DNA of 64,000 bases from the IMG/VR virus record IMGVR_UViG_3300037634_003213; one strand, given 5' to 3'. Shown here one piece after another: positions 146 to 58,754 of this stretch (the first letter of the stretch is position 1; every line of letters begins with the position of its first letter). Below the pieces are notes generated by a model that had not been told where the DNA came from, did not search any database, and saw only the letters and a list, made by a program, of their open reading frames with translations. Both the position numbers and the translations under genes were made by a program. This DNA comes from an uncultured virus (IMG/VR IMGVR_UViG_3300037634_003213). Lineage: Duplodnaviria > Heunggongvirae > Uroviricota > Caudoviricetes.

Positions 146-3100
146 TTAGTCACTACCTTCTGGTTGATAGCGATCTGATATATCAAGTGGTCGGTCACGG
201 GTCTTGGCCTCCAACTCTCCAACAGCGCCCTGGAGCGCCCGCTGGGTTCGGTAATAATGCATTAGTATTGCTGCGTCTTCAGTAGGCATTTGTTGTACGC
301 CGAACAGGATTGACTTCCATCCTTCATCAACGCCAATCCGGGGCCTCGCACCACGGATCGGCTCTCCTTCTGGACCTTGTTGAAAATCAATGTCGCCGGT
401 CTCAGGGTCAATTTGAAATCCTAACGCATTCATAGCCTTATCGAAATCTTCACCCTCCCCAAGGCGTTTATCGTCAACAAGCTTGCCTCTCTTTTCAATC
501 CTCACAAGATGTTTGTAATATTTGAGATCGGCATCAAGCAATTGCGGAATAATCATACCAGCGCGACCAAATCTATTAAGACTGTCAATCATGCGTCCAG
601 CAGGCGCAACGCCGAGCGTTCCTTCTTTAAAGCCTTTGATCGGCTGTAGTCTGGCCAGAAGGCCAATCGGCGTGTAGTCAATCACCTCTCCAACATCGCC
701 CATCCAACTAGTCCCAGGGGTGTCTTCACGCATTGGCATCACGGGTACTGGGCCATGCCAGATGTTTTGAAGAAGATACCAGTTCATTATCTCTGCGGCT
801 TCCCAGACGTGGGTCTGACCAGGAAACTCTTGCTCTTCGAATTCTTTAATTGCGCGAACTCTTCCCCCGACCCCCCTTAGCATCATGCCTCCAGTGGTCA
901 GAATATCGTGCTGAGCCCAGAACGTGGGAATGCGCTCTTCCCTCATTTTAGTCCCTCTAAAGAAAGACTTTTGAATAGTCATGGCCATTGGAGCCTGAAT
1001 CCAGGGGTTAAGCCTGGACATAAATCTCAACTGATTCTTCATTCTTTTCTGTCGTAGAATCACATTATCTGTTGGCAGAAAACTTCCAACAAACGAAAAG
1101 AAATCAAGCTGACCCTTTATCGCTTCCATCGCTGGAAGAATAGGCGCATTGTATCTGTTCATCTGGACCATACGATTAGCAGAGTTTCTTACGAACATGA
1201 GACCCAATCGCCCAACACTATAGTCGCTTTCGATTAAGGTTTCGTCACCATCTAAAAACACCCTATTAACACCGCGAGCAAGGCGGAACTGACCCATTAT
1301 CCTGTGAGGGTTAGTGAGAAATGTGTCCCAAAACAAATCAAGGTTCTTTCTCTGAAAAGAGTAGAAGATAAAAATCTGCCGCATGTACTTCTTTTCGAAA
1401 GGAGTAAGATCCGAATAATCAAAAAGAGCACTCCTTGCCGATTTCGCCGCATCAGCAGGAGAGAGCCCCCTGCCAAGACCTTCCGTAAACAACGCCACTC
1501 GATGGTAGTTATCAATGAACGTCGCAAAGTTAATTAACTGTTCATGATAAAATCTTAGAGACCGAACGGGACCAGGAAGCTCCACCCCTGCAAAGCCAGG
1601 ATAATCTACTTCTTTATATGGCAGCTTCTCATACTCTGTTTCCCCCGTCATTTTCTCCCAAAAAGACGGCTCGTTTTTCTTAAGATCAGCGGCAATGGAC
1701 CGCGCTGTTTCCATTGATAAGAATGAGCCAGACAAACCATGCTCGTGGCAAGACTTGGTAATGGCCTCCCTTGACCAAACTGTACCATCAGGCGTTACAA
1801 TTGGTTTTATTTTTGAAAACCGCATTGTCGGAGTCCGGCCCCACAAAGCGGCGGAAACTTCAAGGGCGATACGAGGATGGCTCATTGAGGAGAAATACCC
1901 TCGCATGCCCACTTTTTGATACACTTGAAGCTGCGCTCCAAAAGCATTCGCTACATAATAGGGCAGGTTGACCATGAAAATACCTGACGTAAGCCCCATT
2001 TTGGTCATGCGGTACGACCAACTAAACGTGTTCATGGTGAAGTTCATGAGATCTGCTGAATTAATATAATCTTTATGGAGTTTATTCTTCACTCTCTTGG
2101 CTCTGTTCAACAAGCCTGGTAGAGCTTCAGCTTCAGGAAGATGCCCGCTTTCGGTTTTCAGCCTCGATCTCCCGGCCCTTGCAGAGGCTGTTCCAGCAAC
2201 ACGGTCAACCGCGTCGTTTATTTCATCCAAAAACAATTTTGGCGTGAGGGCCTCGGAGCCGTCCGAAAATCTGGTAAGCTCCCAGTTCTCAATATTAGCC
2301 CCGTATTTCATGCCCCACTTTTCAATAAGGTCTTGAGCAACAGTATATGCTTCAAGATCATCAACTACGACTTTTGTTACTACGTCACCCATAGTAGCTT
2401 GAGTTCGTCTATAGCCCCCTTCCTTTGAAAGGCGCTTCCTGGCTTGTTTGCTAAGTAGCCCAGCGCCCGGCCCGCTTCCCTGTAGCTTGCCGCCTCCTTC
2501 AGCTAAAAACCTAGGACCTTCAAGCCTTGATTGAAGACCTTCATGAAGAAGCGAACCGCTCTCATCAACAAGATGGCCAACCCCACCAAACTTCATTTCA
2601 TCATTAAGATACAGCCTGACTCTCTCCGCGAACGCTCTTTTTTCAGTGATGCTTCGGATCGAGGACGGCGCAAGATCTTCAACCTTCACAGCCATTCCCA
2701 TGTCAGTCATGTCATTAATCAAGCCCTTAAAAATACTTTGGGCTCTTAATCTAACAATAGTTTCCAACATCGCATGGGCAAGGTTGTATCGACCTGGATA
2801 CTTGAGCGCAGTGCCGGTAGAATATCCTTTGTTTGCAAAGGTTCTAAGAACCTCGCCCCACTCTCCACGGTAGAAGAGATTGTACAACGCGATAGCATCG
2901 CCCCGTTCTGTAAAAGAGCCGTCTTTACGATTGAAGATCTTTCGCGCAGCCTCTGGTGAACCGGCCATTCCAACAATAATAGTTTCGACAGCGTCATCAG
3001 CCATGTGAAGTCGGCGGGATATGCCCTCTCCGAGAACTAAATAAGCTTCTGCAATAGCCTCGCGCATCAAAGGATCTTTTATTTCAACCTTGCCGTTTCT

Positions 3101-6100
3101 GAGCACAGTGCGTTCTGGTTCAGTTCTCTTGATAAGATCAATTTCACGTAGAAGTTCAATGGCTTTTCGTTCTGTGGGCAACATCAATCGGTTGTCCGCA
3201 AATGCTATCTGGATGTCATCAAGCCTTTCAACAACGACATCAAAAGATATGCCTCTCTGTGAATCGAAATATACCTCGACGTTATCCAAGGTCCTATATG
3301 ATTGGTTGCTAATAGGTTGTTCAAGAACCTCTTTTAGCCCTTCAAGGGTTTCCCAAACGCCCGAGGCCATGCGACCTTCTTTCAGTGATTTCTGAACCCG
3401 CCTAATCCAGTTCGGAATATCGTCGATTTGACGAGACCTGCGCATGAAAAGCTCTTTTACAATAGGGCTTACAACCTCAGTGTCTACGCTCGTTTCTTTT
3501 CCGGTCTTTGATTTTCTAACATGAGCAAGCGGTGCTCTTGTTTTGAATTTCTTTTTAAGAGAGCGAACTATGATGTCACCGCCAAACCATTTAAAACCTC
3601 TAGAACTCAAAACATTCTGTACAGCAGCATACCCAAGAGATTTCGGAACCTTTTTCATTTCCTTAGTCAAGCCAGTCCCGACCCCTACTACATGATCCCG
3701 AAGCATTTCACGTGTAATAAAATCGTAGTGAGCTTCAGGAAGAACACTTAAGTCTCCGTGTGGCCCAAGGTACTCACCAAGAACCATTCTGACTGGATCT
3801 TTAGTTCTTGGATCAGCATAAAGCTCAAGAAGCAAAGATTTTAAGTTGACTTGTTGAAGCTCGGTAAGTTCAAAGACAGTTATTTCAACGGGAACTTCTC
3901 TGCCATCAGGAAGAATCTCAGTAGCGACCTCCCATTCTGGCATGCCGTCCTCTCCGATTATTTCGTCTCCAAACCGATCCAACTTTGCCCGTTCTTTTGG
4001 AACCTTTTTCATTTGCTTTTTTAAAGCATGCGGGTCACCGAACACCGAATAGGTTCGAAGCTGCACCTCTTCAAGATACCTGGGAAGCATACGCGCAGGA
4101 ACAATGCTTCTTGTTGAAAAGCTCAACCAGTTGTTCGTATATTTTGTGCGAGACATCTCTCTTGAGACGTATTCAACCGCCTTCTGCATTGTCTTGAAGG
4201 TGTCCACCTCCGTGACATCATCGCCAAGCTCAAGGGCATGGCGAATACGGCCCTCATCCAAATCAATACGAGTAGCCTCTTTTGAGCGACCACCTTTCGC
4301 TACTACCTCTGTTTCAAGAACACTCTCTTTTAATGGTACGCGGGGAATCGACTTAAACTCAGCCGAGTCGCTTACGTCAAACATCGCTTCTTTCTTTGCA
4401 TCGTTAAGGACGCCAAGCCACTCATCAAAATACCTACGCACCGCAGGGTTGGTCCGGTCTGCTCTGTGCCTTATGCGCCGCCAAAACACGGCCAACTTAT
4501 CTTTAATGCCGTGAAAGGCCATATCAACTTGCGGATCATCCACATTCCTAGAATGCCAAAAGTCAACAAATGCGTCACTAACTTCTGCTCTGCCGCGACC
4601 AGTAAGCGTAGTGACTCCGTTTTCTCCAACGATACTGTCAAACTTATTGGTGAAAACCTCCATCATTTCAGGAAATTCTTCGGCCATTAAATACAGGAGA
4701 GCGTTGCTGTTCTCTTTGAAAAGAACAGATGCGTCCCCCTTATTAAACAAGTCTGACAAGTCGCGACCAGCGCTAATCAATATATTTAAAGGAGTTGAAG
4801 GCGGCCCACCTTCTCGCATATACAAGGCACCCTTAGACATTTCTGTTGGTAATGGGCGTCCCTCAAAAGGAGCGGTGCCGCCAAAGCGGCCCTCTTTAAA
4901 CGAGCTATGAAGATCACGGAAGCCAGCACCAAACAATCCGCTGACTAATCGGCTATGGCGACTTGTAAGATCGGCCTGAACACGAGGGTCTTTGATCTCA
5001 GGGAATGTGGCTTCTAAAGACTTAATGATTGACTTAAGGGCCGCTGGCCGCACGGCTGGAAGCATAGTGCTCCCAGGCTGAACAATCACGTGAGGATCAA
5101 GATAGCCTCGCCATTCGTCCCAAATCACATGAGACCTTGTTGCTACGTTGCCAAGCACATCGCGTTCTTGAACGTCTCTGGCCATGCTTTCAAGCACTTC
5201 TTTATAGTCAGGAGACATGACTTCAACATACTTAGTCCCGTCTTTTTCTCTCGATAAGTCTCTTATGAATTTATCAACAATCGGGTGATCTGAGCCAAAC
5301 ATTTTCTCGGCTGATTCAATGTGCTCGTGAGCTTTAATTGCGTCCTCAAGCTTCCCAACTCTGTCAGCACGCTGTTTAGGGGTGAGCTTTGTATTAGCTT
5401 TTACATCAGCCATAACCTGACGGACTTTTTTAGAATCAATGTTCTTTGTTGGGAAGGCTTTCCTATATTCTGAAACGCCTACAGGATGAACTTGCAGTCT
5501 TTGTGGCGTTGTGATTTCAGTGCGAAGCTGGTCTCGCCAAAACGTGTAGCCAGGATTCGACTTATCGGCCTTAAGGAATTGCTCGAAAGACACGCTTTCA
5601 CGACGCTTTCGTTGATCGTTTAATATCTGTTTAGCCCTGGCTTTAATAGCCTTAGTGCTGGGAGCCTTATTCTTTTTCGACTTTCGAATAAGCTGAGCTT
5701 CGGCAACTTCTTCAAGGTGTTTCTTGGCGGCTTTGCTTTTAATTGTGCGCCAATCATCGTACCAGCCCCTGGCTTTATTTTGCCAGCGTTCTTCTTTTAG
5801 GAACTTCTTCCCTATAATACCGATTTGGTGAATATCGATAGCGCTAATCGTAGCCGCTATTGGGTTCTGCCAATAGATTCCGAATGCACTAATCTTGGTA
5901 GCCATACCAGGCACCATGCTCGACACCCTGTCTGAGAATGCGTCCCATGCTTCATCTGGATAGCGCTCAAAGAATGATTGTTTAAGATCGCCTCTTTGTA
6001 CTTTAACAAAATCCTCGTACATCATATCGTACATTTCGAGCAGCTTAGCTGTGTCTGCTGGGCTGGAAAGGACGATGTCTCCGGTAAGAGCAATAACATC

Positions 6101-9100
6101 AGTAGATGAAACCGAGTTCAGAACGGCCCTGTGAGCCATGTCTGCTGCCTCCATCTCTTTGATAGCCTTTTTAAGCTGCGATTTTGCACGCCGACGTTTA
6201 GCCGCATCCTTGATTTTTGGGATTCGAGATTCAATCTTCTCGACTTGTCTCTTGAACTTCGTATAGCGACCAAGAGCTTTCCTTGCCTTTCCTGCAATCT
6301 TATTGGCGTTTAACGATGCAATATCAACGGACTGCACTTCAATCAACGGGCCGCCAGGTTTTGTCCAATCACGAATCTCAATTATCGGCAGAACATTGGT
6401 CTCAACGTCAAGAAGGATTTGTTTTTTCCCAAACCGATCCTTAAGAGCTTTTGTTCCAATAGTTATAGAGAAGCCAAGAATATGGTTCGCTTCATTGCGA
6501 GTTAAGGGGGAACCCTTGTTTATCGATGCTGCACGAGCCCGACCCACCATGTCTGCCAGGTCCCGCATGCTTCTTGGTCTTGCTACGGCAGCAAACATCT
6601 GATTGTCTAATAGATTTGTTTGCATCGATAAGAACGCAAACACATACTGTGACGCAACGTCCATTAAATGGACTTCCATTTGTTGGGCCCACTCAGCACG
6701 AGCTTCATTGTTTATAAAACGATTTTCCGAGAAGAAGTCTTCGATATTTGGTCGTTTAGCCTCAAGGCCATAGCCGCTGTGAAGCTTGTCGTACATCTCC
6801 TCGACCATTGCTGTGTAGGCTTCTTTGTACTGTTCAATGATTTCATCAAAGTTGCCGAGGGTGTCGGGCTTTCCAAAAAGACCTTCACCAACATCTGACC
6901 ACCATTTTCCAGCAGCCTCGTCGGTAATCATCTCAATCGGGCGTCTCGCTAAATACTGAACGTCCGCAAAGCTAAACACTCCCTCTTTTCCGCCAGGAAT
7001 CAACACCTTCATCCCTTGCTCTCCACCAAAACCAGTGGCCTTAAGCATTGGATATACTGGGCCAGAAACTTCCGAACGCTCGATCCTTGTGCCTTCTGGT
7101 GTTTCTACGATGCGCTCTACGGTGAACTTTGTATCCGTGGAAATGTCCTCAAGAGGAGAAGCGCTACCCATCCTCTGCTTTAAAATTTCTGCTTGGTAAG
7201 AAGTAATCTCAGAGTTGAAAACCCTTTGCTTAAGACCCGAGTCTACTTCAAAGTCCACAACAGCATGCGGCGTTCCGCCAATCTTCTCAGATGAAAGATC
7301 GAACTCTGCTGCTAACTCTTCTGAGAAGTGCCCTGAATCAAGAGCATCGCGCTCATTGAGAACTTGGCGAATGTCTGGCCCAAGCCTGTCAACGGCTCCA
7401 TCAATATCCAAAAGATCAGAAGAACCTGTAGGTCCTGTCGCAACTTTTGTTGTTGGTTCTGCTACTCCCTGAGACTCTCTAAGGGCTTCAATGCGGCGAT
7501 TTGCAGTGTTTAGTCTACGCTCATATAGGCGCTTTGTCCCGACCGCTGTGGCCTTGCTCAGACTCTCTTCAGCCTCTGCCGCACGCTTCATTAAGATTTG
7601 CATCTCGATTGATTCTGGTGCCTTGGCCGCCCCTTTAACAGGCTTCTCCATGAGCGAGATAAACTCAGTCTTGGGTCGCGAAGCAAGCTCTTCAAGTGGC
7701 GCATCGAGCAGTTCATCCGTCACGCGGATCAACTCGGTCAAGGCGTTGTGGTCTTTCTTTGCAACACCGAGCAGGTCTGCGATCTTTTCGACGAAGACAT
7801 TCCACATCGACTTGTCTTCAACCTTAATGGTCATCAAATAGTCTTGGAACGTCTTGTTTGTCAGGCCATAAGCAACAAACTCTTTCACATTTCCAGTCGC
7901 GCTTATGAGAACTTCTTCAGTAGCGGCGTCAAGGATTTTCTCTTTTTGGGCTTGTTTAGCAAGCTTGACTACTTGGTTGCGAAGGTCAAAAATATCAGCC
8001 GTAGCTTTTTGAAGCGCAGTGCCCTTGTTCGCAGGACGGTTGCCATCAAAAAGCCGCCTCACGGTGGCTGCATGTACCAACTCGTGCAGTGCGGCTTCAG
8101 CCGTCGTTCCAGAGAAAGCCTCATTCCCGCGAAGGAACACATCATTAAAAGCGTCACCAGCAGGCGACCAATTTAGACCACTGGTGACTACACTCAACCG
8201 AGATTCGTGTGCGGAAATTAAGGTTAATTTATAGGCAATTTTATTTGGTAATGTACCTTTTTTCTCCATGTCGTATACAGCTTTTGGTATATCCTCGCGG
8301 CCCTCAATTACATGCACCTCGGTATCGCCTAAGTGAGGCTTGATACGCTCAGCAATACGTTGGTGTACAGGATTGTCTGCATTTTCAGCAATAAACTCAG
8401 CAAGCTCAGTGCCCGTTTTTGCCTGACGCATGGCAGCGTTGGCTTCTCCGAGAGTCAGTTCACCTAGCCCTACATCGGTTGGGACGTTTGATTTCTCGGC
8501 TTGAACAACGTCAGTGGGCGGTGCCTCCGCCATCCGAAGCTCAGCGGGAGGTAGTTCTTCCTCCATCCTCAACAGGTCTTGGGCAACCTCAACCTCATCA
8601 AGATCTGGGATGTATTGCCCGTCAAGCCCGGCTCGTTGTCTTGACAAGGCGCTGAACACCCCCTCGTCTGCCATTCGCACCTGGAACCCCGTAGCTCTGC
8701 GCAGCGCAACCTCACGGCGAGAAGCCATACCCGCTGCCTTATCGTCAAACAGGCGGTCAACTAAAGTCGATAGCGCGGGATGAAAGTCCGTTCTCGCTCT
8801 GGGAGCACGCCTATACCAGGAGTTAAACCAGTTAGACATGCGCTCCATCAGGTTGTTAAAAATGCGGAGCAAATCACCAGCGCCGCGTTGTGTTGCCACA
8901 ACATTAGGAAGACGATGCGTGATTACGAACTCAGCGAAGTTCTCAGCAAACCATTCATTGAACTGAATGTCGGTCATTGTTTGGAAGTTTCGCGTGTATG
9001 GCGTATCTCTGAACAAGCCAAAGTCGTCCAACTCATCCCTGAAAGCTTTCGAGAGAATCGCGATTTCACTGTCAGCCAAAAACGACATCGCAACACCGTG

Positions 9101-12100
9101 ACCAAGCTCGTGAAGAAACTGGTAGGTGCGAGGGCCGACACGATCAGAGCCTCTCTTATAGGAGTCCAGCGCATGCTCAAATTGAGATACGAGTTGCTCA
9201 GTTTTTTCAGCGGAAAACACCTCGCCCTCTTGTCGCTTCATCCAAGTCTCAGCGTCTACATATCGCTCCGACAACTCACGAGAGGTATAGGTTTTGCCGG
9301 TTTTTGGGTTCTTTCTGTCTGACAAGAACCGAATAGCAACGGATCGAAAACCTTGATTATCATCCCTCTTATAGCGAATGGCTTCGAAAATCTCATCGAG
9401 GTTTGCGCCGATTAAGAAAGAGCTTTCCGCTGCTTTCATCGTTCCGATCTCGTCGGCATAACCGAAAAAATCAACAGAACTAATCAGCCGATCAACCGCC
9501 CCACCTTCTGTTAGAAGCTCTGTAGTCCTCGCAGAAGCACCTTGTGCAATACCGGCAATCTGATCATTAAGGCGTATGTCTCTCAACACCCTTTCTGGAA
9601 GGGACATAACCAGCGCTTCAAGGACCGCCGCTTGGTCTACCTCAAGAAACCCTTTCTCAGCAAGAGCCCTGATAGACTGAGCAATCTGAGCGCGTCCAGC
9701 ATTAGCCTGGGCGGCAGAAACTTTTGCTTCTCCAGCATCATCCAATGTCTCGCGGGCTCGCCTTACTCGCTCGGAAACATCTTCAAGAACATTATCGAAA
9801 AGCTTTCGAACTGAATCAAGAGTGGCTTCGTCTGAGAACCGGGCCAACATATTGTCTTCTGCCCGAGAAAGTAGTTCTACAAAGTCATCAAACTTTGATT
9901 GAGCGGTAGCAGGCATGTCAGCAAATTCTTTCGCAAGACGATGTGAAATCTCGCCAAGAAGATCGGCACCAATGTCGCTCTTGTGCGTTGTGCGACTGAT
10001 AAGAGTCACAAGCATATCCATGCCCATGCTTCTGAGTCTTGCTTTATCTCCAACAGCATTGACGATTTCAAACTGAGCAGCATCGCTTAAGGCGTTGAGT
10101 TGTGCCTCATCCGATAAATCGACATCAACGGTCCTAAGCTCATCAGCAGGAATAGAATCAACAAGCGCTTGTTTGGCTGAATCAACCTCGCCTGCGCGTG
10201 ATCCAATCGTCATGCTCGGTGGCTCTACAGATCGGCCCGATTTAATGTCATTAAGCAATGATTCCATGTAGGTCTCAATTGCTTTACTCCCCTCTTCGAG
10301 GCCCCTGACCCGCGCAAGACCAACAGCATGGGTTTCAATCATTGCCATTAGAGAATCGACAACGTCAATACCTTCAAGAGACTTGTAGTTCAGGGGATTT
10401 CTTTCATTGGCTGCTTCAAGCTCATCTCTAAGGCGAGAGTATGAGGCTGATTCCCGAATACCTTTTGTGTAATCGTCCACGCTATCAAGGCGTGCTGCTG
10501 CTTCTGAAAGAAACTTAGCAGTCCTCATCTTCGAGGAGTCTTTAAGAACGCGATTCACATCTTCAGCAGCGATACCACCGCGCCGCATGACCTCAAACAC
10601 ATTAGAACGAAATTTTGGACCAAACCCCTCAAGCGGGTTGCGGCCTTGTAGTAGGTTCTTATTGAAAAGTTCACCGGCCATCATGCTTGTTAAATCGTGC
10701 ATGCCCCCGAACTTTTTGGTTAGAGGTGCCGGACCCATGCCAGGTATGGCATTTCTCCAACCCATAAAACCTCGTTGCCGACTTTTGGCTTCTCGCATCC
10801 TTTTTTTGGCCAGGCTTAGCTCAGGGTCACCGAAAATGACTTCCCTCAAATCTCTTCGACCCAGCCTTTCTACAGTATCGGCTCGACGTTTTGCTGCTCC
10901 AGTCGTTGCCGTGTCTACTGCTTTTTGGTAATCCGCAATGTCTTCAACGGGCGCAACTTTCTTCCACAGACTCCCGAACCCATAAATGCCGTCTGCCAAA
11001 TACGCGGCCCGCATTGTGTCGAGGGCAATCGGTGCGCCAGGCATGTCTTTGTAAATCTTCCTTAGACGGGCTGTGCCTACAAAAGGTCGAGCCAATGTTG
11101 CTAAACCCATCTCCTCAACAGGAACAAGAAAATCTAAACCCAGACCAGTGGCTATTGAGGCTTTATAAAAGCTGCTGTTTTTGTCATAGCCTAAACCAAG
11201 CGCCGTTTCTCCAAGCCTATCCATAAACCCAGCAGCACCATAAGGGTCCATACCGGACCACGAATCGTTGATGCTGCCACGGTCGCTAGCGCGGCCATCC
11301 CAATCCCACGCGCCGAACTGATCTCCAATAGCCATGATCGGATCAGATATGACATCCATGGCTATCTCAGAAATAGGGCCAGCAAAAAACTCACCCCCGA
11401 CCCGCAAGAAGGTGCCCGCACCATTTTCATCTATGGTAACAGTTGTTCCATCTTCGAGGTAACGAGAGTCGGTCATCGCGTTACCCAGCGTCTGGATCGC
11501 GAAATCGCCAACCTTTCTGTCTTCTGGGCCGTACATCGCCTCTCTTGCTGCTGTCTGACGTTCGATGTTTTTACGAATGCCTTCGTAGCCCCCCATTTTT
11601 TTAAAAACGCCAGAGCCTATTTTGCCTGGAAGGGTGTAAAGCTTTTGGCGATTAAGCTGACTCTCAATGGTTTCCCAGCCATCGTCGGAGTGAACGTACT
11701 CCTCAAGGTACACGCCCTCGTCCTCGGCCCTTTCTTTGGCCCCTTGGATGATTCTATAGATCGCAGGATGTAAATACAGAACATCTGGATTTTCAACATA
11801 GATGCTGAGCGCTTGAGGCGGCTGCACTGGGTAGTTCTGAGCTTTTAGAAACTCGTCCTTAAACTCAGAGAATGACGGAACGTCTAACAGGTAATCGTTG
11901 ACTCGTATGTCATCACGAGACTTACCCAAAAACATTTTTGTAAACTCGGCCTTCCGCACTGACGGGTCGTCTGAGATAAGTTCTTCGTTGTCAAAAAACT
12001 TTTTAAAATCCTCTGCAACTTCACTGCCCCACAAAGCTGTGTTTATCTGGCCAAAATCAGAACCAGGCACATCGATACCTAGAGCATCTCCAATACGCAC

Positions 12101-13630
12101 AGGCAATTGCGCTACCGTGCTGCCTACCTGGGTTACAGTTTGAAAAGATGTTTTAAACGCTGTACCGGAACCGCTAAAATCGATCTCTGGGCCATAGGGA
12201 TTTACTGCTTTAAAAACAGGATTGGCGAACATAGCCGTGTTGCCCCACCAACTATCCTGCATGTGGCCCGCCCTGGTCGCCCACGGGTCTTCACCCAATT
12301 CATTTTCACTAACAATTCTGAGCCTTCTGTCCGGCCATAAATCACTGGGGATTTGCTGGATTATTCTGTTCAGCCTTTTGGTAATCTCTTCGCCATCACG
12401 CCCAGAGTCAAGCATTTCTTGCCTGACCCGCCAAATATCAATCGCTGCTTTTACCCGTTCAGCGACCTGACTATTTGTTGGATATGTATCGATGTCATTC
12501 CAGTCTTCTTCACCGCTACGTTTGGCACCGCCTCTCTTCTTCCATTCAGAAACCCAGTCAGAAGGCTGTGCGATCCAAGTGCTTTCTATAGAGCCCACTT
12601 CCTTGGATCGTTTTGCCTCCTTAAGAAAAGCATCTCTCTGCTGAACATATTGGCCAAGCACATCTATAAATGAAGCGTTGCCCAACGCAATGTTGTTTTG
12701 CTGTTCCAAATGTTCGTTGTAAGTCTTTAATTCTTCTTCACTAGCTTTTCCTAAATGAGCCCGAATCTCAACCGTTTCATACCAGGGCCTAAACTGCCCA
12801 GTATCTGGGTGTGCTGCATCTTTGTGTGCTTTTTCTGCCGGATGACCGGGGTAAACGACGCGAGGATTAAACGTCTGATCACGATTTCTCCACCACCTCT
12901 GGCCTCGCGATTGGCCATAATACTTTTCAGAAACAGTTTCAGCATCAACATGCCAAGGGTTGACCTTACTGGACGCCCAGGATGCGACTGATCGCACCCC
13001 GCTACCAAGAGCGCTCTCGTTAGCTATTTCTCCAAAAGATTGAAATACTCCGGGCCGAAGAGTCAGGTTCTCTGCTTGCGTGACTCTATCCACAAGGTCT
13101 TGGCCTGAACTCTCGTGTCTAGAAGAAGTGGCTTGGAAAGATCGGGCTATAGCCTCATCTTCAGTGAGGCCCTCCGCTTGTTGAAGAGCGTCTTTTACAT
13201 TGTAAAACATCCTGTCTTCAAGACGCTCTTGATACGTTGCCGTTTGAGAATAGGAGCCAGGAACAGGGAACACCGACTCCCTTGGATAAAGCTTTCTGAG
13301 AAAAACACGTTCTGCGTTATCCTCTGCCTGGCCTTCTGCTGCCCAAGCTTCCGCTGCGCGATTCGGGCTGCTCGGATGTTCGCTAATAAGATTCAAGTAT
13401 TCTATGGATTTCTTATCTCTTTCCTCATCAGTCAACCCTGGGGTGGTTTCGTCAACAAACTGATTGGCCGCCTCAATGTACCTTCTTTGAAGGTCTTCAC
13501 CATGCACGATGTCAATCGTTGGAGGCTCTCTCTCCATGTAGCCTTCAGGGACCGTTACAAGATCTTCGTATTCGTCATCAATAGACGAGGTGGCTACCCT
13601 TACGGGGCCAAGAGGCGGCAGCTTAGCCAT
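146..13630 (-). CDS. Giant (4494 aa) internal virion/DNA-ejection polyvalent protein with two zincin HExxH motifs and an HhH-GPD-like region
   Basis: Single 13.5-kb ORF at the end of the tail/ejection cluster; motifs FLHELGH...EWFAE, LHELVH...EFVAY, FLSMQT...PGMATK...AIDIH; C-terminal A..A...FDY..L..FE....R..F.FY pattern typical of large phage ejection proteins. Confidence 0.75.
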   Translation of the reverse strand: MAKLPPLGPVRVATSSIDDEYEDLVTVPEGYMEREPPTIDIVHGEDLQRRYIEAANQFVDETTPGLTDEERDKKSIEYLNLISEHPSSPNRAAEAWAAEGQAEDNAERVFLRKLYPRESVFPVPGSYSQTATYQERLEDRMFYNVKDALQQAEGLTEDEAIARSFQATSSRHESSGQDLVDRVTQAENLTLRPGVFQSFGEIANESALGSGVRSVASWASSKVNPWHVDAETVSEKYYGQSRGQRWWRNRDQTFNPRVVYPGHPAEKAHKDAAHPDTGQFRPWYETVEIRAHLGKASEEELKTYNEHLEQQNNIALGNASFIDVLGQYVQQRDAFLKEAKRSKEVGSIESTWIAQPSDWVSEWKKRGGAKRSGEEDWNDIDTYPTNSQVAERVKAAIDIWRVRQEMLDSGRDGEEITKRLNRIIQQIPSDLWPDRRLRIVSENELGEDPWATRAGHMQDSWWGNTAMFANPVFKAVNPYGPEIDFSGSGTAFKTSFQTVTQVGSTVAQLPVRIGDALGIDVPGSDFGQINTALWGSEVAEDFKKFFDNEELISDDPSVRKAEFTKMFLGKSRDDIRVNDYLLDVPSFSEFKDEFLKAQNYPVQPPQALSIYVENPDVLYLHPAIYRIIQGAKERAEDEGVYLEEYVHSDDGWETIESQLNRQKLYTLPGKIGSGVFKKMGGYEGIRKNIERQTAAREAMYGPEDRKVGDFAIQTLGNAMTDSRYLEDGTTVTIDENGAGTFLRVGGEFFAGPISEIAMDVISDPIMAIGDQFGAWDWDGRASDRGSINDSWSGMDPYGAAGFMDRLGETALGLGYDKNSSFYKASIATGLGLDFLVPVEEMGLATLARPFVGTARLRKIYKDMPGAPIALDTMRAAYLADGIYGFGSLWKKVAPVEDIADYQKAVDTATTGAAKRRADTVERLGRRDLREVIFGDPELSLAKKRMREAKSRQRGFMGWRNAIPGMGPAPLTKKFGGMHDLTSMMAGELFNKNLLQGRNPLEGFGPKFRSNVFEVMRRGGIAAEDVNRVLKDSSKMRTAKFLSEAAARLDSVDDYTKGIRESASYSRLRDELEAANERNPLNYKSLEGIDVVDSLMAMIETHAVGLARVRGLEEGSKAIETYMESLLNDIKSGRSVEPPSMTIGSRAGEVDSAKQALVDSIPADELRTVDVDLSDEAQLNALSDAAQFEIVNAVGDKARLRSMGMDMLVTLISRTTHKSDIGADLLGEISHRLAKEFADMPATAQSKFDDFVELLSRAEDNMLARFSDEATLDSVRKLFDNVLEDVSERVRRARETLDDAGEAKVSAAQANAGRAQIAQSIRALAEKGFLEVDQAAVLEALVMSLPERVLRDIRLNDQIAGIAQGASARTTELLTEGGAVDRLISSVDFFGYADEIGTMKAAESSFLIGANLDEIFEAIRYKRDDNQGFRSVAIRFLSDRKNPKTGKTYTSRELSERYVDAETWMKRQEGEVFSAEKTEQLVSQFEHALDSYKRGSDRVGPRTYQFLHELGHGVAMSFLADSEIAILSKAFRDELDDFGLFRDTPYTRNFQTMTDIQFNEWFAENFAEFVITHRLPNVVATQRGAGDLLRIFNNLMERMSNWFNSWYRRAPRARTDFHPALSTLVDRLFDDKAAGMASRREVALRRATGFQVRMADEGVFSALSRQRAGLDGQYIPDLDEVEVAQDLLRMEEELPPAELRMAEAPPTDVVQAEKSNVPTDVGLGELTLGEANAAMRQAKTGTELAEFIAENADNPVHQRIAERIKPHLGDTEVHVIEGREDIPKAVYDMEKKGTLPNKIAYKLTLISAHESRLSVVTSGLNWSPAGDAFNDVFLRGNEAFSGTTAEAALHELVHAATVRRLFDGNRPANKGTALQKATADIFDLRNQVVKLAKQAQKEKILDAATEEVLISATGNVKEFVAYGLTNKTFQDYLMTIKVEDKSMWNVFVEKIADLLGVAKKDHNALTELIRVTDELLDAPLEELASRPKTEFISLMEKPVKGAAKAPESIEMQILMKRAAEAEESLSKATAVGTKRLYERRLNTANRRIEALRESQGVAEPTTKVATGPTGSSDLLDIDGAVDRLGPDIRQVLNERDALDSGHFSEELAAEFDLSSEKIGGTPHAVVDFEVDSGLKQRVFNSEITSYQAEILKQRMGSASPLEDISTDTKFTVERIVETPEGTRIERSEVSGPVYPMLKATGFGGEQGMKVLIPGGKEGVFSFADVQYLARRPIEMITDEAAGKWWSDVGEGLFGKPDTLGNFDEIIEQYKEAYTAMVEEMYDKLHSGYGLEAKRPNIEDFFSENRFINNEARAEWAQQMEVHLMDVASQYVFAFLSMQTNLLDNQMFAAVARPRSMRDLADMVGRARAASINKGSPLTRNEANHILGFSITIGTKALKDRFGKKQILLDVETNVLPIIEIRDWTKPGGPLIEVQSVDIASLNANKIAGKARKALGRYTKFKRQVEKIESRIPKIKDAAKRRRAKSQLKKAIKEMEAADMAHRAVLNSVSSTDVIALTGDIVLSSPADTAKLLEMYDMMYEDFVKVQRGDLKQSFFERYPDEAWDAFSDRVSSMVPGMATKISAFGIYWQNPIAATISAIDIHQIGIIGKKFLKEERWQNKARGWYDDWRTIKSKAAKKHLEEVAEAQLIRKSKKNKAPSTKAIKARAKQILNDQRKRRESVSFEQFLKADKSNPGYTFWRDQLRTEITTPQRLQVHPVGVSEYRKAFPTKNIDSKKVRQVMADVKANTKLTPKQRADRVGKLEDAIKAHEHIESAEKMFGSDHPIVDKFIRDLSREKDGTKYVEVMSPDYKEVLESMARDVQERDVLGNVATRSHVIWDEWRGYLDPHVIVQPGSTMLPAVRPAALKSIIKSLEATFPEIKDPRVQADLTSRHSRLVSGLFGAGFRDLHSSFKEGRFGGTAPFEGRPLPTEMSKGALYMREGGPPSTPLNILISAGRDLSDLFNKGDASVLFKENSNALLYLMAEEFPEMMEVFTNKFDSIVGENGVTTLTGRGRAEVSDAFVDFWHSRNVDDPQVDMAFHGIKDKLAVFWRRIRHRADRTNPAVRRYFDEWLGVLNDAKKEAMFDVSDSAEFKSIPRVPLKESVLETEVVAKGGRSKEATRIDLDEGRIRHALELGDDVTEVDTFKTMQKAVEYVSREMSRTKYTNNWLSFSTRSIVPARMLPRYLEEVQLRTYSVFGDPHALKKQMKKVPKERAKLDRFGDEIIGEDGMPEWEVATEILPDGREVPVEITVFELTELQQVNLKSLLLELYADPRTKDPVRMVLGEYLGPHGDLSVLPEAHYDFITREMLRDHVVGVGTGLTKEMKKVPKSLGYAAVQNVLSSRGFKWFGGDIIVRSLKKKFKTRAPLAHVRKSKTGKETSVDTEVVSPIVKELFMRRSRQIDDIPNWIRRVQKSLKEGRMASGVWETLEGLKEVLEQPISNQSYRTLDNVEVYFDSQRGISFDVVVERLDDIQIAFADNRLMLPTERKAIELLREIDLIKRTEPERTVLRNGKVEIKDPLMREAIAEAYLVLGEGISRRLHMADDAVETIIVGMAGSPEAARKIFNRKDGSFTERGDAIALYNLFYRGEWGEVLRTFANKGYSTGTALKYPGRYNLAHAMLETIVRLRAQSIFKGLINDMTDMGMAVKVEDLAPSSIRSITEKRAFAERVRLYLNDEMKFGGVGHLVDESGSLLHEGLQSRLEGPRFLAEGGGKLQGSGPGAGLLSKQARKRLSKEGGYRRTQATMGDVVTKVVVDDLEAYTVAQDLIEKWGMKYGANIENWELTRFSDGSEALTPKLFLDEINDAVDRVAGTASARAGRSRLKTESGHLPEAEALPGLLNRAKRVKNKLHKDYINSADLMNFTMNTFSWSYRMTKMGLTSGIFMVNLPYYVANAFGAQLQVYQKVGMRGYFSSMSHPRIALEVSAALWGRTPTMRFSKIKPIVTPDGTVWSREAITKSCHEHGLSGSFLSMETARSIAADLKKNEPSFWEKMTGETEYEKLPYKEVDYPGFAGVELPGPVRSLRFYHEQLINFATFIDNYHRVALFTEGLGRGLSPADAAKSARSALFDYSDLTPFEKKYMRQIFIFYSFQRKNLDLFWDTFLTNPHRIMGQFRLARGVNRVFLDGDETLIESDYSVGRLGLMFVRNSANRMVQMNRYNAPILPAMEAIKGQLDFFSFVGSFLPTDNVILRQKRMKNQLRFMSRLNPWIQAPMAMTIQKSFFRGTKMREERIPTFWAQHDILTTGGMMLRGVGGRVRAIKEFEEQEFPGQTHVWEAAEIMNWYLLQNIWHGPVPVMPMREDTPGTSWMGDVGEVIDYTPIGLLARLQPIKGFKEGTLGVAPAGRMIDSLNRFGRAGMIIPQLLDADLKYYKHLVRIEKRGKLVDDKRLGEGEDFDKAMNALGFQIDPETGDIDFQQGPEGEPIRGARPRIGVDEGWKSILFGVQQMPTEDAAILMHYYRTQRALQGAVGELEAKTRDRPLDISDRYQPEGSD

Positions 13631-42947: not shown

Positions 42948-42975
42948 GTCTCGCACTTTACCTACGTCTCCGTAG

Positions 42976-43390
42976 GATACCCCCCCCCTCTGCCACGGCC
43001 TCAAAAAATCATCACCTCACGGGCCCCCGTGGGGGGGGGTGTGGGCGTGCCGGGTTCGCACCCGTGGCCGGGGGGGGGGCGGGGACCGGGGCGGGGGGAT
43101 CACGGCCACCGCCACCGGCCGCCGGTGGGGCGGGGGATGGGGGGGCCGCCAGCGCAACCAGGGGAAGCGCAACCAGGGGAAGCGCAACCAGGGGAAGCGG
43201 GGCCACGGTGACAAGGGCCACCAAAGCGACCACCACCACCGCGATCACCCGTTCCACTATTGGAGCGGTGCGGGGGGATGGGGGGGGAGTAGGAGCCGCG
43301 ATCCGCAGCAAAGGGGCCACGGCCCACGAAACGAAACGCCCTGTCTTTTTGCACCGCGCCCTTTGCCGGGGGGACCCGGCGGGGAGAGCA
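42976..43390. other. G/C-run-rich segment, candidate genome terminus/packaging region
   Basis: C9, G9 and G10 runs and many GGG tracts, unlike the rest of the window; lies at a transcription-module boundary. Confidence 0.45.
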
Positions 43391-43413
43391 ACAAAGGCAA
43401 GGGAGTATTTCAT
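43012..43413 (-). CDS. Possible leaderless membrane protein with Pro-rich tail
   Basis: TACACT 6 nt before the ATG; basic RARCKKTGRF, hydrophobic helix, (LPLVA)3; low complexity lowers confidence. Confidence 0.4.
   Translation of the reverse strand: MKYSLAFVALPAGSPRQRARCKKTGRFVSWAVAPLLRIAAPTPPPSPRTAPIVERVIAVVVVALVALVTVAPLPLVALPLVALPLVALAAPPSPAPPAAGGGGRDPPAPVPAPPPATGANPARPHPPPRGPVR
43151..43199. repeat. 15-bp tandem repeat AGCGCAACCAGGGGA x3.3
   Basis: Direct reading. Confidence 0.95.
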
Positions 43414-43420
43414 GAGTTCA

Positions 43421-43441
43421 GTGTAACCGGGAAAACTACAC
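43421..43441. promoter_or_regulatory. Operator-like inverted repeat GTGTAA-N9-CTACAC
   Basis: Same spacing as the copy at 43575. Confidence 0.55.
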
Positions 43442-43574
43442 TCCGCCGGTTTTATTTATTTATTTTAAAAACGCTGTACGTGGAGCCTGTCCAAAAAAAA
43501 AACGCAAATAATTGAAAATAATTCCCCTCAAATTCCCCTTATATTCCAACCACTTGCGTCGCAGCAGGCTTACA

Positions 43575-43613
43575 GTGTAGCGATTTGCACTACACAAAAT
43601 GCCGGACAATACT
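43575..43613 (+). promoter_or_regulatory. Early sigma70-type promoter (TTGCAC-N17-AATACT) overlapped by operator GTGTAG-N9-CTACAC
   Basis: -35 at 43585-43590, -10 at 43608-43613, AT-rich tract upstream at 43450-43530. Confidence 0.55.
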
Positions 43614-43646
43614 GATTGTGTGGAAAGGGAATCTCCCAACCCACAA

Positions 43647-43658
43647 CGCTCTTTTAAA
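43647..43658 (+). promoter_or_regulatory. boxA-like antitermination site CGCTCTTTTAAA
   Basis: Matches the rrn/nut boxA core GCTCTT; preceded by a hairpin. Confidence 0.55.
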
Positions 43659-43818
43659 TCCTTTCATGATCTCAACCCAAATCGAGGCCCCACCCCCAGC
43701 GGGGGACGCAGGATCGATAGCCTAACGGCGGCACCCCCTTCTTATAGGGCGGAGCTTTGGAACGGACCCCAGGATCGGGGGGCTCAGCTAAACGCTGGCG
43801 AACCGATATAAGGATGGA

Positions 43819-43830
43819 TGCTCTTTGAAA
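43819..43830 (+). promoter_or_regulatory. boxA-like antitermination site TGCTCTTTGAAA
   Basis: Close match to rrn boxA. Confidence 0.6.
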
Positions 43831-43844
43831 TTCGAAAACTGTAA

Positions 43845-44415
43845 GGCACCCTGGCTATTTTTAGTCGGGACCCAATCAATCCAAGCAATTTAGGCGCTTA
43901 CTCTATCGCTATCAGGTGATAGAACCTCTGACCCCTTTCACGGAATACGTGTTGGGATAGGTAGGGCGAACGGTTCACGGTGCGCGGCGGGTCCTGCGTT
44001 TAGAGAGGGACCAGATAGCAGCGAGTAGACATAGAAACCGTGTACAGTCAAGCCGGACCGCGACCCCCCCGTCAAAGGGAGCGTGATAGCCGGATAAGGA
44101 AAGCCTTGGATTGACCGTCGAGTAGAGAAGGTGGGAGCCTGCAAGGGGCCCCTGCGTGGATGAAAGACGATCTGACCCCCAAGGTGCAAGGCGAGCGAAA
44201 GCCACGACCCACGACCCTTAGACTGTGCGACGGCGAACGAACAAAGCGACCCTAAAACGGGCGACATCTCCCAAGATCATAGCGATCAAGGAGGTGTCTT
44301 GCACCCTATACCCCCAAGGTGGGGACGCTTTGCGGCAATGAGGCAACCTTCAGGCCCCCCTTCGGGGGGGTTCTGACGGGCCTAATCAATGCACGGGCAT
44401 TCCGCGCGTGTATTG
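43845..44415 (+). ncRNA. Large structured non-coding RNA, family unassigned
   Basis: No credible plus-strand ORF; more than 12 hairpins, nested long-range helices, GCAA/GAAA/UUCG loops, many G-U pairs valid on the plus strand. Confidence 0.65.
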
Positions 44416-44457
44416 TTCCGGCCTGACCGCCAATAAACCTGACAAAGGACCGACAAA

Positions 44458-44637
44458 ATGCCTAATTTCATCAAATGCATCCACGTGACCCAGCTAAACG
44501 GTAGCTTTCACCTGATCAATACCGATACCCACACGGGAACCGGGGACTTTTTCCGCACTGACAAAGCAGCGGTGGATTTCCTACAGGGTGAGGGCTTCAC
44601 ATGGGACCCCGCAACAGACGAATTCACCCGCAGCTAA
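44458..44637 (+). CDS. Hypothetical 59-aa early protein (MPNFIKCIHV...)
   Basis: AAAGGA SD; below the ORF-track cutoff. Confidence 0.6.
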   Translation: MPNFIKCIHVTQLNGSFHLINTDTHTGTGDFFRTDKAAVDFLQGEGFTWDPATDEFTRS

Positions 44638-44654
44638 ACCACAACCCGCCTAAG

Positions 44655-44720
44655 TTATCCACAAGGTATCCATAGGCTTATCCATAACCAACCCCTAAGT
44701 TATCCATAGACTTATCCATA
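44655..44720 (+). promoter_or_regulatory. Array of five co-oriented DnaA-box-like 9-mers
   Basis: TTATCCACA 44655; GTATCCATA 44666; TTATCCATA 44678, 44700 and 44712. Confidence 0.7.
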
Positions 44721-44729
44721 GGAGGATTC

Positions 44730-44915
44730 ATGTCTAAACCCCAACAAGTACGCGCCCTTGTAGCCAAGGCACCCGTCTCTATCAGCCCCAAGAACACCAA
44801 GCGAGTAGTCCGTGCAGCAATGCGCGAGGTCTACGGCCCGGAGTGGTTCACGAACGGCCAGACGAAGGGTGTATTCAAGCGAGTGAAGGCAAGCTACGCC
44901 GCACGCAACAAGTAG
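44730..44915 (+). CDS. Hypothetical basic 61-aa protein
   Basis: AGGAGG SD. Confidence 0.7.
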   Translation: MSKPQQVRALVAKAPVSISPKNTKRVVRAAMREVYGPEWFTNGQTKGVFKRVKASYAARNK

Positions 44916-45110
44916 GCAGGGTGGGATTAGGCCCTGTGCGTCCACTACTCCGAAGGGGGTAGTGGGGTTCCCCAAGTGTTTGAGGAATGCATGACGCCAC
45001 CCGAGGGTGTGGTCCGTGTAACCTACCGGGACCCTTGAGACCTGGGCACGTCTGCACTGAGGCAATGACGCCTCGACAACCTAAACTGCCCACGCCATTG
45101 GAGGCAACTA

Positions 45111-45185
45111 ATGGAGAAATTTATTGTAATAATTGCAGGCTACTACTGGGCAAGCGCCCTGGCCAACACACTGGTAGGTTTCTAA
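45111..45185 (+). CDS. 24-aa hydrophobic peptide MEKFIVIIAGYYWASALANTLVGF
   Basis: GGAGGCAACTA-ATG motif; TAATG coupling to the next gene. Confidence 0.6.
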   Translation: MEKFIVIIAGYYWASALANTLVGF

Positions 45186-45502
45186 TGGAACTTCATATCT
45201 ACCTGGTCAAGCGCCCGGCCTTAGCGGGCTACGGCACCTACGATTCATTCGCGGTTGTTGCGTCCAGTGAACGCGCTGCACGCCACACCTATCCGAACCG
45301 AGGAATAGACGACTGGAAGTGGGACCGCGCCCGTGAATTGTGGGTAGACATCCGAGACGGCGACACGATTTACGACGGCCACGCATGGGTCGATGACCCC
45401 CAAACCTTGACGGTCACACGGGTTGGAAGCGCTGACCCTTCGTCTGTTTGGCTGACTGCCCAACACACCGCCGTCATCTGCGCGAGCTTCAACGCTGGCT
45501 GA
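45185..45502 (+). CDS. Hypothetical protein (start revised, MELHIYLV...)
   Basis: Coupled start; YDSFAVVA..E..AR...P and VICASFNAG patterns seen in small phage proteins. Confidence 0.65.
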   Translation: MELHIYLVKRPALAGYGTYDSFAVVASSERAARHTYPNRGIDDWKWDRARELWVDIRDGDTIYDGHAWVDDPQTLTVTRVGSADPSSVWLTAQHTAVICASFNAG

Positions 45503-45533: not shown

Positions 45534-45590
45534 ATGGCAATCGCACTGACCGTGCTCTATACACTGACGCTACCCCTAACCCTCACCTGA
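45534..45590 (+). CDS. 18-aa hydrophobic peptide MAIALTVLYTLTLPLTLT
   Basis: GGAGGCAACCT-ATG motif. Confidence 0.45.
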   Translation: MAIALTVLYTLTLPLTLT

Positions 45591-45684
45591 TCTTTAGTCT
45601 CTATTGATCCAAGGATCTATATTTAAACAACAACACCTAATATAGATCCTTTATTGAATAGAGTAAATAGGATCTAATATGATC
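45589..45684. other. AT-rich tract with six GATC sites
   Basis: GATC at 45589, 45606, 45614, 45645, 45671 and 45681. Confidence 0.7.
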
Positions 45685-45701
45685 CGCAACAAGAGGCAAC
45701 C

Positions 45702-58164: not shown

Positions 58165-58453
58165 GCGACCAAAGTATTGGTCAAACTGGAGAGAGGACTC
58201 AAAGCTGTCGAGCATAGTGGCTTCCTATGAGATCTTCATAGGGGATAGACTGTCTGTTGTATCGTTCACTAATACAGGCGCACCCATAATGGAGATAGTC
58301 TCGCCAAAAAGATCACTAAGAAAAAAAGCAAAAAAAGCAGGGATGATTTATGGGCGATGGCCAACAGAAAACGGTGGAGAACGGCGCGGGTGGATACCTG
58401 GCCGACCTGATGAGCCGTTAGAAACAAACCCTTATTTAATTGAAAAGCGTTGA
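58145..58453 (+). CDS. Hypothetical basic protein
   Basis: 102-aa ORF, last of the plus-strand block. Confidence 0.5.
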   Translation: MKSNKNRRPKYWSNWREDSKLSSIVASYEIFIGDRLSVVSFTNTGAPIMEIVSPKRSLRKKAKKAGMIYGRWPTENGGERRGWIPGRPDEPLETNPYLIEKR

Positions 58454-58483
58454 TGAGTAGTAAAAGTCGGTTAGACTTAAACC

Positions 58484-58559
58484 TGTCAGGTGTTGGTTGC
58501 CTCCAACCACGACGTTGCGACCCCGGTAGTGTCGGTCTCTATCGGGGTCGCTTTACGTC
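58484..58559 (+). ncRNA. Candidate trans-acting sRNA antisense to the GGAGGCAACCAA start motif
   Basis: TTGGTTGCCTCC at 58493-58504 in a hairpin; TTGATG-N16-TAGACT at 58450-58477; strong 3' stem 58511-58559. Confidence 0.6.
58517..58554 (+). terminator. Hairpin between convergent genes (terminator-like, short U tail)
   Basis: GCGACCCCGGTAG-N9-CTATCGGGGTCGC-TTT. Confidence 0.6.
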
Positions 58560-58562
58560 CAG

Positions 58563-58754
58563 CTAAGACTGTTGAGAATATCCATCGGCGGCCCAGCCGC
58601 CCCCTTTGAGTGAGAAGCTTGTCCGCGATACCATCTTATTGGTCCGCTTAGACTGGCACTTTGGACACACCTGGGCTTTGTCGCGCTCCGCTTGGGACAA
58701 GAGCTTATCGAACTGAGCAGCGCAGTTGTCACAACGATATTCAAAGATGGGCAT
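58563..58754 (-). CDS. FmdB-family zinc-ribbon protein
   Basis: MPIFEYRCDNC...CPKC...FSLKGGGWAADGY. Confidence 0.85.
   Translation of the reverse strand: MPIFEYRCDNCAAQFDKLLSQAERDKAQVCPKCQSKRTNKMVSRTSFSLKGGGWAADGYSQQS

Follow-up and report, generated by a model that had tools for sequence, protein, structure and literature searches.

The window analysed here, that is the whole 64-kb stretch of DNA from an uncultured virus (IMG/VR record IMGVR_UViG_3300037634_003213), represents most of a tailed-phage genome; the genomes of its relatives measure 69-73 kb, and one of them, with terminal repeats, is rated as complete. Terminase, major head protein, DnaB, a RecE-like exonuclease, a DNA methyltransferase and the anti-restriction protein ArdC were identified by PHROG and Pfam. 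An ORF of 4494 aa at 146-13630 on the minus strand is without Pfam match. The matches of DnaB to named bacteria are only 37-42% identical, those of the terminase about 25%, and the best match of the capsid is that of Myxococcus phage Mx9, with 25% identity.

The element described here lies on the plus strand at about 43619-44425, between a promoter-like site and the first early ORF. Its upstream neighbour is a gene of 290 aa, for which no PHROG, Pfam or Atlas match was found, and then comes a GC-rich low-complexity tract (42960-43400) which holds runs of G/C and three 18-nt repeats in tandem. This tract keeps its position and differs in sequence in all relatives, two related contigs end inside it, and it is possibly a packaging or terminus region. 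The layout which follows on the plus strand is a sigma70-like promoter, a 5' hairpin, a boxA at 43648, domain A, a second boxA at 43820, an optional domain B, domains C and C3, a start-less copy of GAGGCAACC, two hairpins and the first early gene.

The motif GAGGCAACC is the common ribosome-binding motif of the run of small plus-strand genes downstream of the element, and the anti-restriction gene ArdC is in the same early cluster. The first early ORF (44458..44637, plus strand, 59 aa, no family) has homologs behind the RNA in the relatives L003, L004 and L006, and also behind the unrelated leader of a sister phage, L081. No plus-strand terminator was found between the RNA and this ORF, the two are probably co-transcribed, and the position of the element suggests that it is the first transcript of the early region.

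Some further features were seen among the early genes. Four 9-mers at 44655-44720 (one TTATCCACA and three TTATCCATA), which we take to be DnaA-box-like, stand between the first two early ORFs; the array is shared by L003, L004 and L005 and is possibly an origin or a DnaA decoy. After a 61-aa ORF, a two-hairpin element at 44916-44975 (plus strand, z -2.3) with a possible GGGA/UUCCC pseudoknot is kept in L003 and L004. The same slot in the sister phage, after the homolog of the 61-aa ORF, holds a type II hammerhead ribozyme (L081 4997-5065, minus strand; RF02276, 37.5 bits with a gathering score of 37), and so the two-hairpin element may be another processing element. An AT-rich inverted-repeat segment (GGATCTATAT...ATATAGATCC) at 45590-45690, also between early genes, is well conserved in L004 and L005 and has one promoter-like site per strand.

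Three ORFs run over the stretch, of 70 aa on the plus strand and of 109 aa and 76 aa on the minus strand. A protein-coding reading was rejected, since frameshifts or stops interrupt all three even in L003, the closest relative, and the initial annotation was right to see no credible plus-strand gene here. It had also left the RNA outside the families known to it, and the Rfam search bears this out: no covariance model matched the window at gathering score, and at relaxed E-values nothing came close to such a score in the region or in eight homolog loci. GOLLD (searched through its conserved 3' region) and ROOL had no match at E up to 10 in 43000-45200 or at E up to 1 in the eight homolog loci, and were rejected as identities for the window and these loci. 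Catalogued introns, RNase P, tmRNA, riboswitches and ribozymes were rejected likewise, as no Rfam or ARAGORN model matched, and ARAGORN gave no tRNA or tmRNA gene in the window. The stretch had no blastn match among annotated phages, the core pattern had none in bacterial and archaeal genomes, and the titles and abstracts of the literature gave no description of this RNA. The phage RNA candidates of Fremin et al. 2023 are at most 151 nt long (PMC10690425); the searched part of that supplement gave no match, and one hairpin of the RNA could still be among the entries in the remainder.

Promoter and boxA-like motifs

An AT-rich tract at 43460..43560 contains A/T tracts and a TCAATGATTYCA-type motif which are kept in the relatives, also in the distant L081, and which are presumably similar to an UP element or an IHF site. 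The sigma70-like promoter behind it (43585..43613, plus strand) consists of -35 TTGCAC at 43585-90, a 17-nt spacer and -10 AATACT at 43608-13, and transcription would start at about 43619-21. The window's own promoter is weak and stays below the threshold of the consensus scan. The homologs carry TTGCAA/TACATT or TTAGAC/TACAAT at the same place, and in the 11 full-length records a sigma70-like -35/-10 pair, spaced by 16-17 nt, stands before the element.

The transcript would open with a boxB-like hairpin, H0 (43619..43645, plus strand), which was found in nine versions in 12 records, has -7.9 kcal/mol with cognate and -6.2 with non-cognate strands, and was recovered by the unbiased scan (described below) too. 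Directly 3' of this small hairpin stands the first boxA-like motif (GCTCTTTTAAA, 43648..43658, plus strand), in which ACGCTCTTT is invariant in all 12 records reaching the site. The second (GCTCTTTGAAA, 43820..43830, plus strand) follows domain A and reads G(C/A)TCTTTGA(C/A)AT in 12 of 12 records. Both had escaped the initial annotation. The first differs from the published consensus GYTCTTTAANA (PMC5725501) by one mismatch, at position 8, and the second is exactly GCTCTTTGAAA, the published boxA of M. xanthus rrnA (bioRxiv 10.64898/2026.07.09.737519). A myxobacterial host is weakly suggested by this identity together with the capsid match to Mx9.

The pattern G[ACT]TCTTT.A[AC]A has five occurrences on both strands of the 64-kb window (128 kb), and two of them are inside the element. 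The boxA2 variant of the homologs, TCTTTGACAT, was found 100-130 nt before the 16S start at 76 genome loci from several phyla, mostly after GY; its chance occurrence was estimated at about 3 in 100,000 per leader, the total of 16S leaders being uncounted. The element carries boxA sequence which is single-stranded and lies 3' of a promoter-proximal hairpin, as at rrn-type sites. In the B. subtilis rrn leader the boxA AUGAUCUUUGAAA comes just after the 5' hairpin (PMC13753749), and the bacterial rrn leader and spacer in general, where boxB-boxA serves a complex of NusA/B/E/G, SuhB and S4, share with the element both the 5' hairpin directly followed by boxA and the second boxA further on, ahead of a long untranslated folded RNA (PMC13753749, PMC8632103). 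Unlike rrn, the element is phage-encoded, its downstream RNA is not rRNA or tRNA, its boxAs are only 172 nt apart and no boxC was identified.

Long untranslated RNA is attacked by Rho, and boxA counters Rho in rRNA and CRISPR leaders (PMC13753749, PMC8632103, bioRxiv 10.64898/2026.07.09.737519). An 11-nt boxA suffices to form the rrn complex (PMC13753749), so that 650-800 nt of covarying structure need another job; boxA accounts for the transcription of the stretch and not for the upkeep of this structure.

Homologs, covariation and domain structure

The window and its homologs make up a final set of 14 records and 13 distinct sequences; L102 repeats L132 in truncated form, and L123 is nearly identical to L005. 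With the upstream 290-aa protein as anchor five viral loci were obtained, four of them extending over the element, and the protein-anchored scans were saturated at seven related contigs. Searching with the core pattern gave 68 loci in viral contigs (four real, all already in the set) and 46 in metagenome contigs (12 real, three of them duplicates of sequences already in the set). A loose twin-boxA pattern gave at least 120 loci, and among the 80 fetched only the L003 contig scored well with model R1. Across 11 full-length records the element is 670-853 nt long; the most divergent homologs share about 64% identity with the window in domain A and 50-58% in domains C and C3. The sister group, with a 79% identical terminase, keeps the flanking genes around an unrelated leader of about 760 nt. 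No homolog of the RNA was detected in the sister phage L081 by nhmmer or model R1, and L080 stops before the region. The L081 leader in the same slot (5490-6250, minus strand, about 760 nt) is hairpin-rich, apparently gene-poor and without the boxA pattern, and is possibly a second RNA family.

The initial annotation had described the stretch as packed with helices and had proposed a comparison with shuffled sequences, which gave no folding excess. On the plus strand the 796 nt reach a minimum free energy (MFE) of -291.8 kcal/mol (z -1.25); 20 shuffles give -283.0 +/- 7.0, three of them being as good, and the minus-strand fold has z +0.63. Among plus-strand windows of 150 nt in or overlapping the stretch, only 44250-44399 (z -3.17) and 44350-44499 (z -2.67) are below -2; only the 3' hairpins stand out, and energy excess was rejected as evidence for structure. 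The fold supported by the homologs is about 14 kcal/mol costlier than the free optimum (-287.3 vs -300.9), which helps to explain why single-sequence folding is misleading here.

RNAalifold on four sequence-only alignments gave changes on both sides in 13/34, 15/43, 5/29 and 14/24 predicted pairs. In a column-wise G-test with tree-based nulls, which has low power, only pairs of the C3 arm passed at E <= 0.05, some of them off-register. In three of the four alignments complementary column pairs with two-sided changes are, by raw count, fewer than the null mean; stacked helices with at least two two-sided pairs number 1, 3, 0 and 4, where the nulls average 0.01, 0.13, 0.05 and 0.07. As indels misregister helices in alignments, a cognate test was used, in which each strand is paired with its own partner and with partners from other homologs. 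Nine of 13 hand-chosen window pairs had a cognate advantage of 1.7-6.8 kcal/mol (one at permutation p 0.08) and four, CCGTCG/CGACGG among them, had none; control pairs never reached -1.7 (0/354 in the downstream ORF, 0/53 in upstream DNA). An unbiased scan of all window pairs was run on 10 full-length records, with domain B and L123 left out, and on 61 tree-aware nulls which preserve ancestral sequence, tree and indels. It gave seven helices with at least 3 kcal/mol of cognate advantage, where the null mean is 0.18 (maximum 1), and nine at -2.5, where it is 0.97 (maximum 3). The proposed search for covariation among homologs thus ended in favour of structure, with 13 distinct sequences.

Stems closed by GNRA or UNCG loops number 69 on the plus and 26 on the minus strand of 14 related records. 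In the strand test the plus strand is clearly favoured in domain D and slightly in domain C, and domain A folds slightly better on the minus strand. With more than 500 nt, no coding and many covarying helices, the element agrees in these respects with the large, ornate phage RNAs.

Domain A (43658..43815, plus strand) is multibranched, with the closing helix AUCCUU/AAGGAU (cognate -8.4 vs -5.7 kcal/mol) and arms A3-A7, of which A4 has -7.6 vs -5.4. Its alignment is the one with 13 two-sided pairs among 34, and little or no cognate advantage was seen for the outer A2/A3, A6 and inner A7 windows. The optional, nested domain B (43839..44021, plus strand) is present in 7 of 13 informative records and cleanly absent in six; in five non-window homologs 5/31 alifold pairs are two-sided, and its cognate tests are weak. 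Domain C (44039..44232, plus strand) is closed by a long-range helix, 44039-49/44221-32, which occurs in five versions (-10.2 vs -5.9) and was recovered by the unbiased scan. It encloses a CCGG arm, UAAGG/CCUUA, GCCUUGG/CCAAGGU, GACCGUC/GACGAUC, an AGUA/GAA internal loop, which we take to be loop-E-like, and a GCAA hairpin. Double changes in L136 confirm two of these inner helices, with CGAGG/CCUCG for UAAGG/CCUUA and CUAAG/CUUAG for CUUGG/CCAAG.

Domain C3 (44242..44332, plus strand) has the closing helix CAAAGCG/CGCUUUG and the arm GACAUCUCC/GGAGGUGUC. The closing strand reads CAAAGCG, GUAGAGCA or CCCCCACG, each with its matching partner (-15.3 vs -11.9), and the arm, with five versions (-12.5 vs -5.7), provides the top pairs of the G-test. 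Domain D (44350..44425, plus strand) consists of a UUCG hairpin, D1, and a long hairpin, D2, with lower stem, internal loop and 9-bp upper stem. Here 97.3% of cells are paired, as against 36-53% in slid controls, 14 of 24 pairs change on both sides, and the fold reaches -32.9 kcal/mol on the plus and -10.3 on the minus strand; on the plus strand G-C has often changed to G-U, and A-C cells are absent. RNase III can be limited by an internal loop to a single cut, after which a protective 3' hairpin is left (PMC1540722), and D2 is a candidate RNase III release site.

The domains reassort and keep their order in all records; L004 shares 93% identity with the window in domain D and only 55% in domain C. 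A contact between domains A and C is suggested by GCCCC at about 43686 and GGGGC at about 44145 (-11.3 vs -8.6), which change in step (GCCCC/GGGGC, UCCCC/GGGGA, GCUCC/GGAGC) in 10 of 12 records, L102 and L132 being discordant; it is only suggestive, as a null is expected to yield 0.44 inter-module hits of this kind. The unbiased scan gave no inter-domain helix beyond domain C at -3.

Every motif quoted by the initial annotation was found at its place, its boundaries were nearly right, and three of its helices, GACATCTCC/GGAGGTGTC, C6-TTCG-G6 and CAATGCACG/CGTGTATTG, have strong support from compensatory changes. The middle part of its fold was largely wrong. GTCAA/TTGAC and the AAGG/CCTT hairpin (both in three window-type sequences) and CCGTCG/CGACGG (14 records) showed no cognate advantage and were rejected, and their strands have better-supported partners in the homologs: UGUACAGUC at 44041-49 with GACUGUGCG at 44221-29, UAAGG at 44095-99 with CCUUA at 44216-20, GCCUUGG at 44103-09 with CCAAGGU at 44178-84, and GACCGUC at 44113-19 with GACGAUC at 44166-72. 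A further helix, TCTATCGC/GTGATAGA, is present only in the window and L003 and is unchanged between them.

The linker between domains C3 and D carries, single-stranded, the start-less copy of GAGGCAACC (44340..44348, plus strand). It is kept in 13 of 13 records reaching the site, none with ATG within 14 nt, as the initial annotation had seen for the window, and the flanking domains reassort across it. A candidate antisense sRNA at 58440-58565 (about 58485, plus strand) has promoter-like hexamers and a hairpin with U-run (z -5.0); its seed, TTGGTTGCCTCCAAC, is antisense to the early ribosome-binding motif, and it is conserved in three of five relatives (G002, G003 and G004) with TTGGTTGCCTCCAAC intact. 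The 44340 site had been proposed as a target or sponge for this sRNA. A target is plausible from the conservation of both partners. The sponge role was rejected, because one 9-base site cannot soak up an sRNA directed at about 16 mRNA sites (16 similar plus-strand sites, AGGCAACY, in the window, each with ATG close behind); a target or a recombination joint would fit better. In two relatives (L335 and L336, 1425-1500) a tRNA-Asn(GTT) lies on the opposite strand right behind the sRNA; it is absent in the window and L334, and the locus corresponds to 58420-58560 of the window, about 14 kb from the RNA.

Conservation, covariation, the lack of coding and the promoter-like site just upstream of 43620 together lead us to read the stretch of about 810 nt as a conserved, non-coding, structured RNA gene at the head of the phage early genes, with a probability of about 0.93. 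The earlier proposal of a large, uncatalogued structured RNA at the head of the early region holds on these grounds; its fold of the middle part and its excess of folding do not.

Possible function and known relatives in kind

GOLLD (often more than 800 nt, with a variable 5' region) and ROOL (659 nt) are of unknown function and form RNA-only cages (PMC12286853). The element is like them a large, phage-encoded, covarying multibranch RNA (PMC12286853), and long phage RNAs of unknown function have also been reported for phage K (PMC9241854). It is unlike GOLLD and ROOL in having no Rfam match and no tRNA in the window, where those RNAs often adjoin tRNA genes, and in standing with two boxAs at the head of an early operon. 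Where they have kissing loops, covariation gave here one suggestive inter-domain pairing, between A and C. The element is a new family within a known kind of large phage RNAs, set apart by its rRNA-like twin-boxA layout and its swappable domains.

The early transcript of phage T7 comes from a host promoter and runs into an anti-restriction gene, as that of the element would. The T7 early leader is short, and the transcript has RNase III sites R0.3-R1.3. D2, with an internal loop between its lower stem and a 9-bp upper stem, has a shape which directs single RNase III cuts (PMC1540722) and may be a site of this sort.

The function which we favour, tentatively and at a little under even chances, is that of an rRNA-style, Nus-loaded first transcript whose folded core would be cut free and act on the host early and in trans. 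Host sigma70 RNA polymerase would start at about 43620, and the twin boxAs would load host NusB/NusE and an rrn-type antitermination complex, which would let the polymerase pass 840 untranslated nt and enter the early genes, and which may aid folding of the RNA. Host RNase III would then cut the internal-loop hairpin D2 and free a 3'-protected RNA. In the most speculative steps, host RNA-binding or defence proteins would find in the freed core (A, optional B, C and C3) a decoy or scaffold during the first minutes of infection; at a later stage the antisense sRNA may bind the GAGGCAACC site of the RNA as well as the early mRNAs.

We prefer a released, trans-acting RNA over a cis antiterminator, separate modules or a DNA element because the structure goes beyond the needs of boxA, the leader is replaced in the sister phage and the shape of D2 suits an RNase III cut. 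Replacement of the leader points to an accessory role towards the host, not to packaging or replication, and ArdC in the same early cluster also fits a host-interaction role. Against it count the missing energy excess, the weak G-test and a clear strand signal in domain D only; and as no terminator of its own was found, a free RNA depends on unproven processing.

Somewhat unlikely in our view, though the main rival, is that the whole stretch is a cis-acting leader without a functional free RNA, the folded domains and boxA working as processive antiterminator or as 5' mRNA stabiliser. Antitermination by put is independent of Nus factors, and Rfam showed no similarity of the stretch to put or EAR. 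The location between promoter and first early gene without terminator and the conservation of both boxAs agree with such a leader, and HK022 put and B. subtilis EAR are precedents of folded RNA antiterminators, being like the element nascent RNA near a promoter which could drive read-through into early genes (PMC8632103). Yet put has about 65 nt and two hairpins (PMC8632103), far below the 670-853 nt conserved here and ten times shorter than this RNA, which has boxA in addition; and in the sister phage these first early genes follow a different leader, which lacks the motif.

It appears improbable that A, B, C and C3 are separate folded RNAs in a small operon, set off by boxA in the manner of 16S/23S rRNA, with each of them processed and active on its own. 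The dispensable domain B, cleanly lost in 6 of 13 records, and the reassortment seen in L004 would fit independent modules as well as the released RNA, each domain has its own closing helix, and no inter-domain helix beyond domain C passes -3; the domain order, however, is never altered, and the A-C contact, though only suggestive, changes in step in 10 of 12 records. Very hard to uphold is a reading at the level of DNA, as an origin, an injection-stop or a packaging signal whose inverted repeats are kept as single-stranded or cruciform DNA: the GC-rich tract just upstream, the TTATCCACA/TTATCCATA array just downstream and a strand test equivocal in three of four alignments speak for it, but the G-U changes without A-C cells in domain D, the plus-strand enrichment of RNA-type UNCG/GNRA loops, the action of boxA as RNA and the start right at a promoter-like site speak against it.

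A bolder form of the trans-acting RNA, which we regard as unlikely, is that phages of this group use the twin boxA to borrow the host machinery for rRNA transcription and folding, and so mass-produce ahead of all else a modular RNA machine of 650-800 nt, whose domains can be swapped and which has a tertiary contact between A and C; it would disarm or rewire the host before any phage protein, and the sRNA would later switch it off along with the early mRNAs.

Few classes of large structured RNAs of bacteria and phages are known, and their functions are mostly open. The natural variants of this RNA, with and without domain B, with two versions of C and several of D, mean that structure probing and cryo-EM can be designed easily. 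From the twin boxA it seems that a phage without evident N-like protein can recruit the antitermination and folding complex of host rRNA for its own non-coding RNA.
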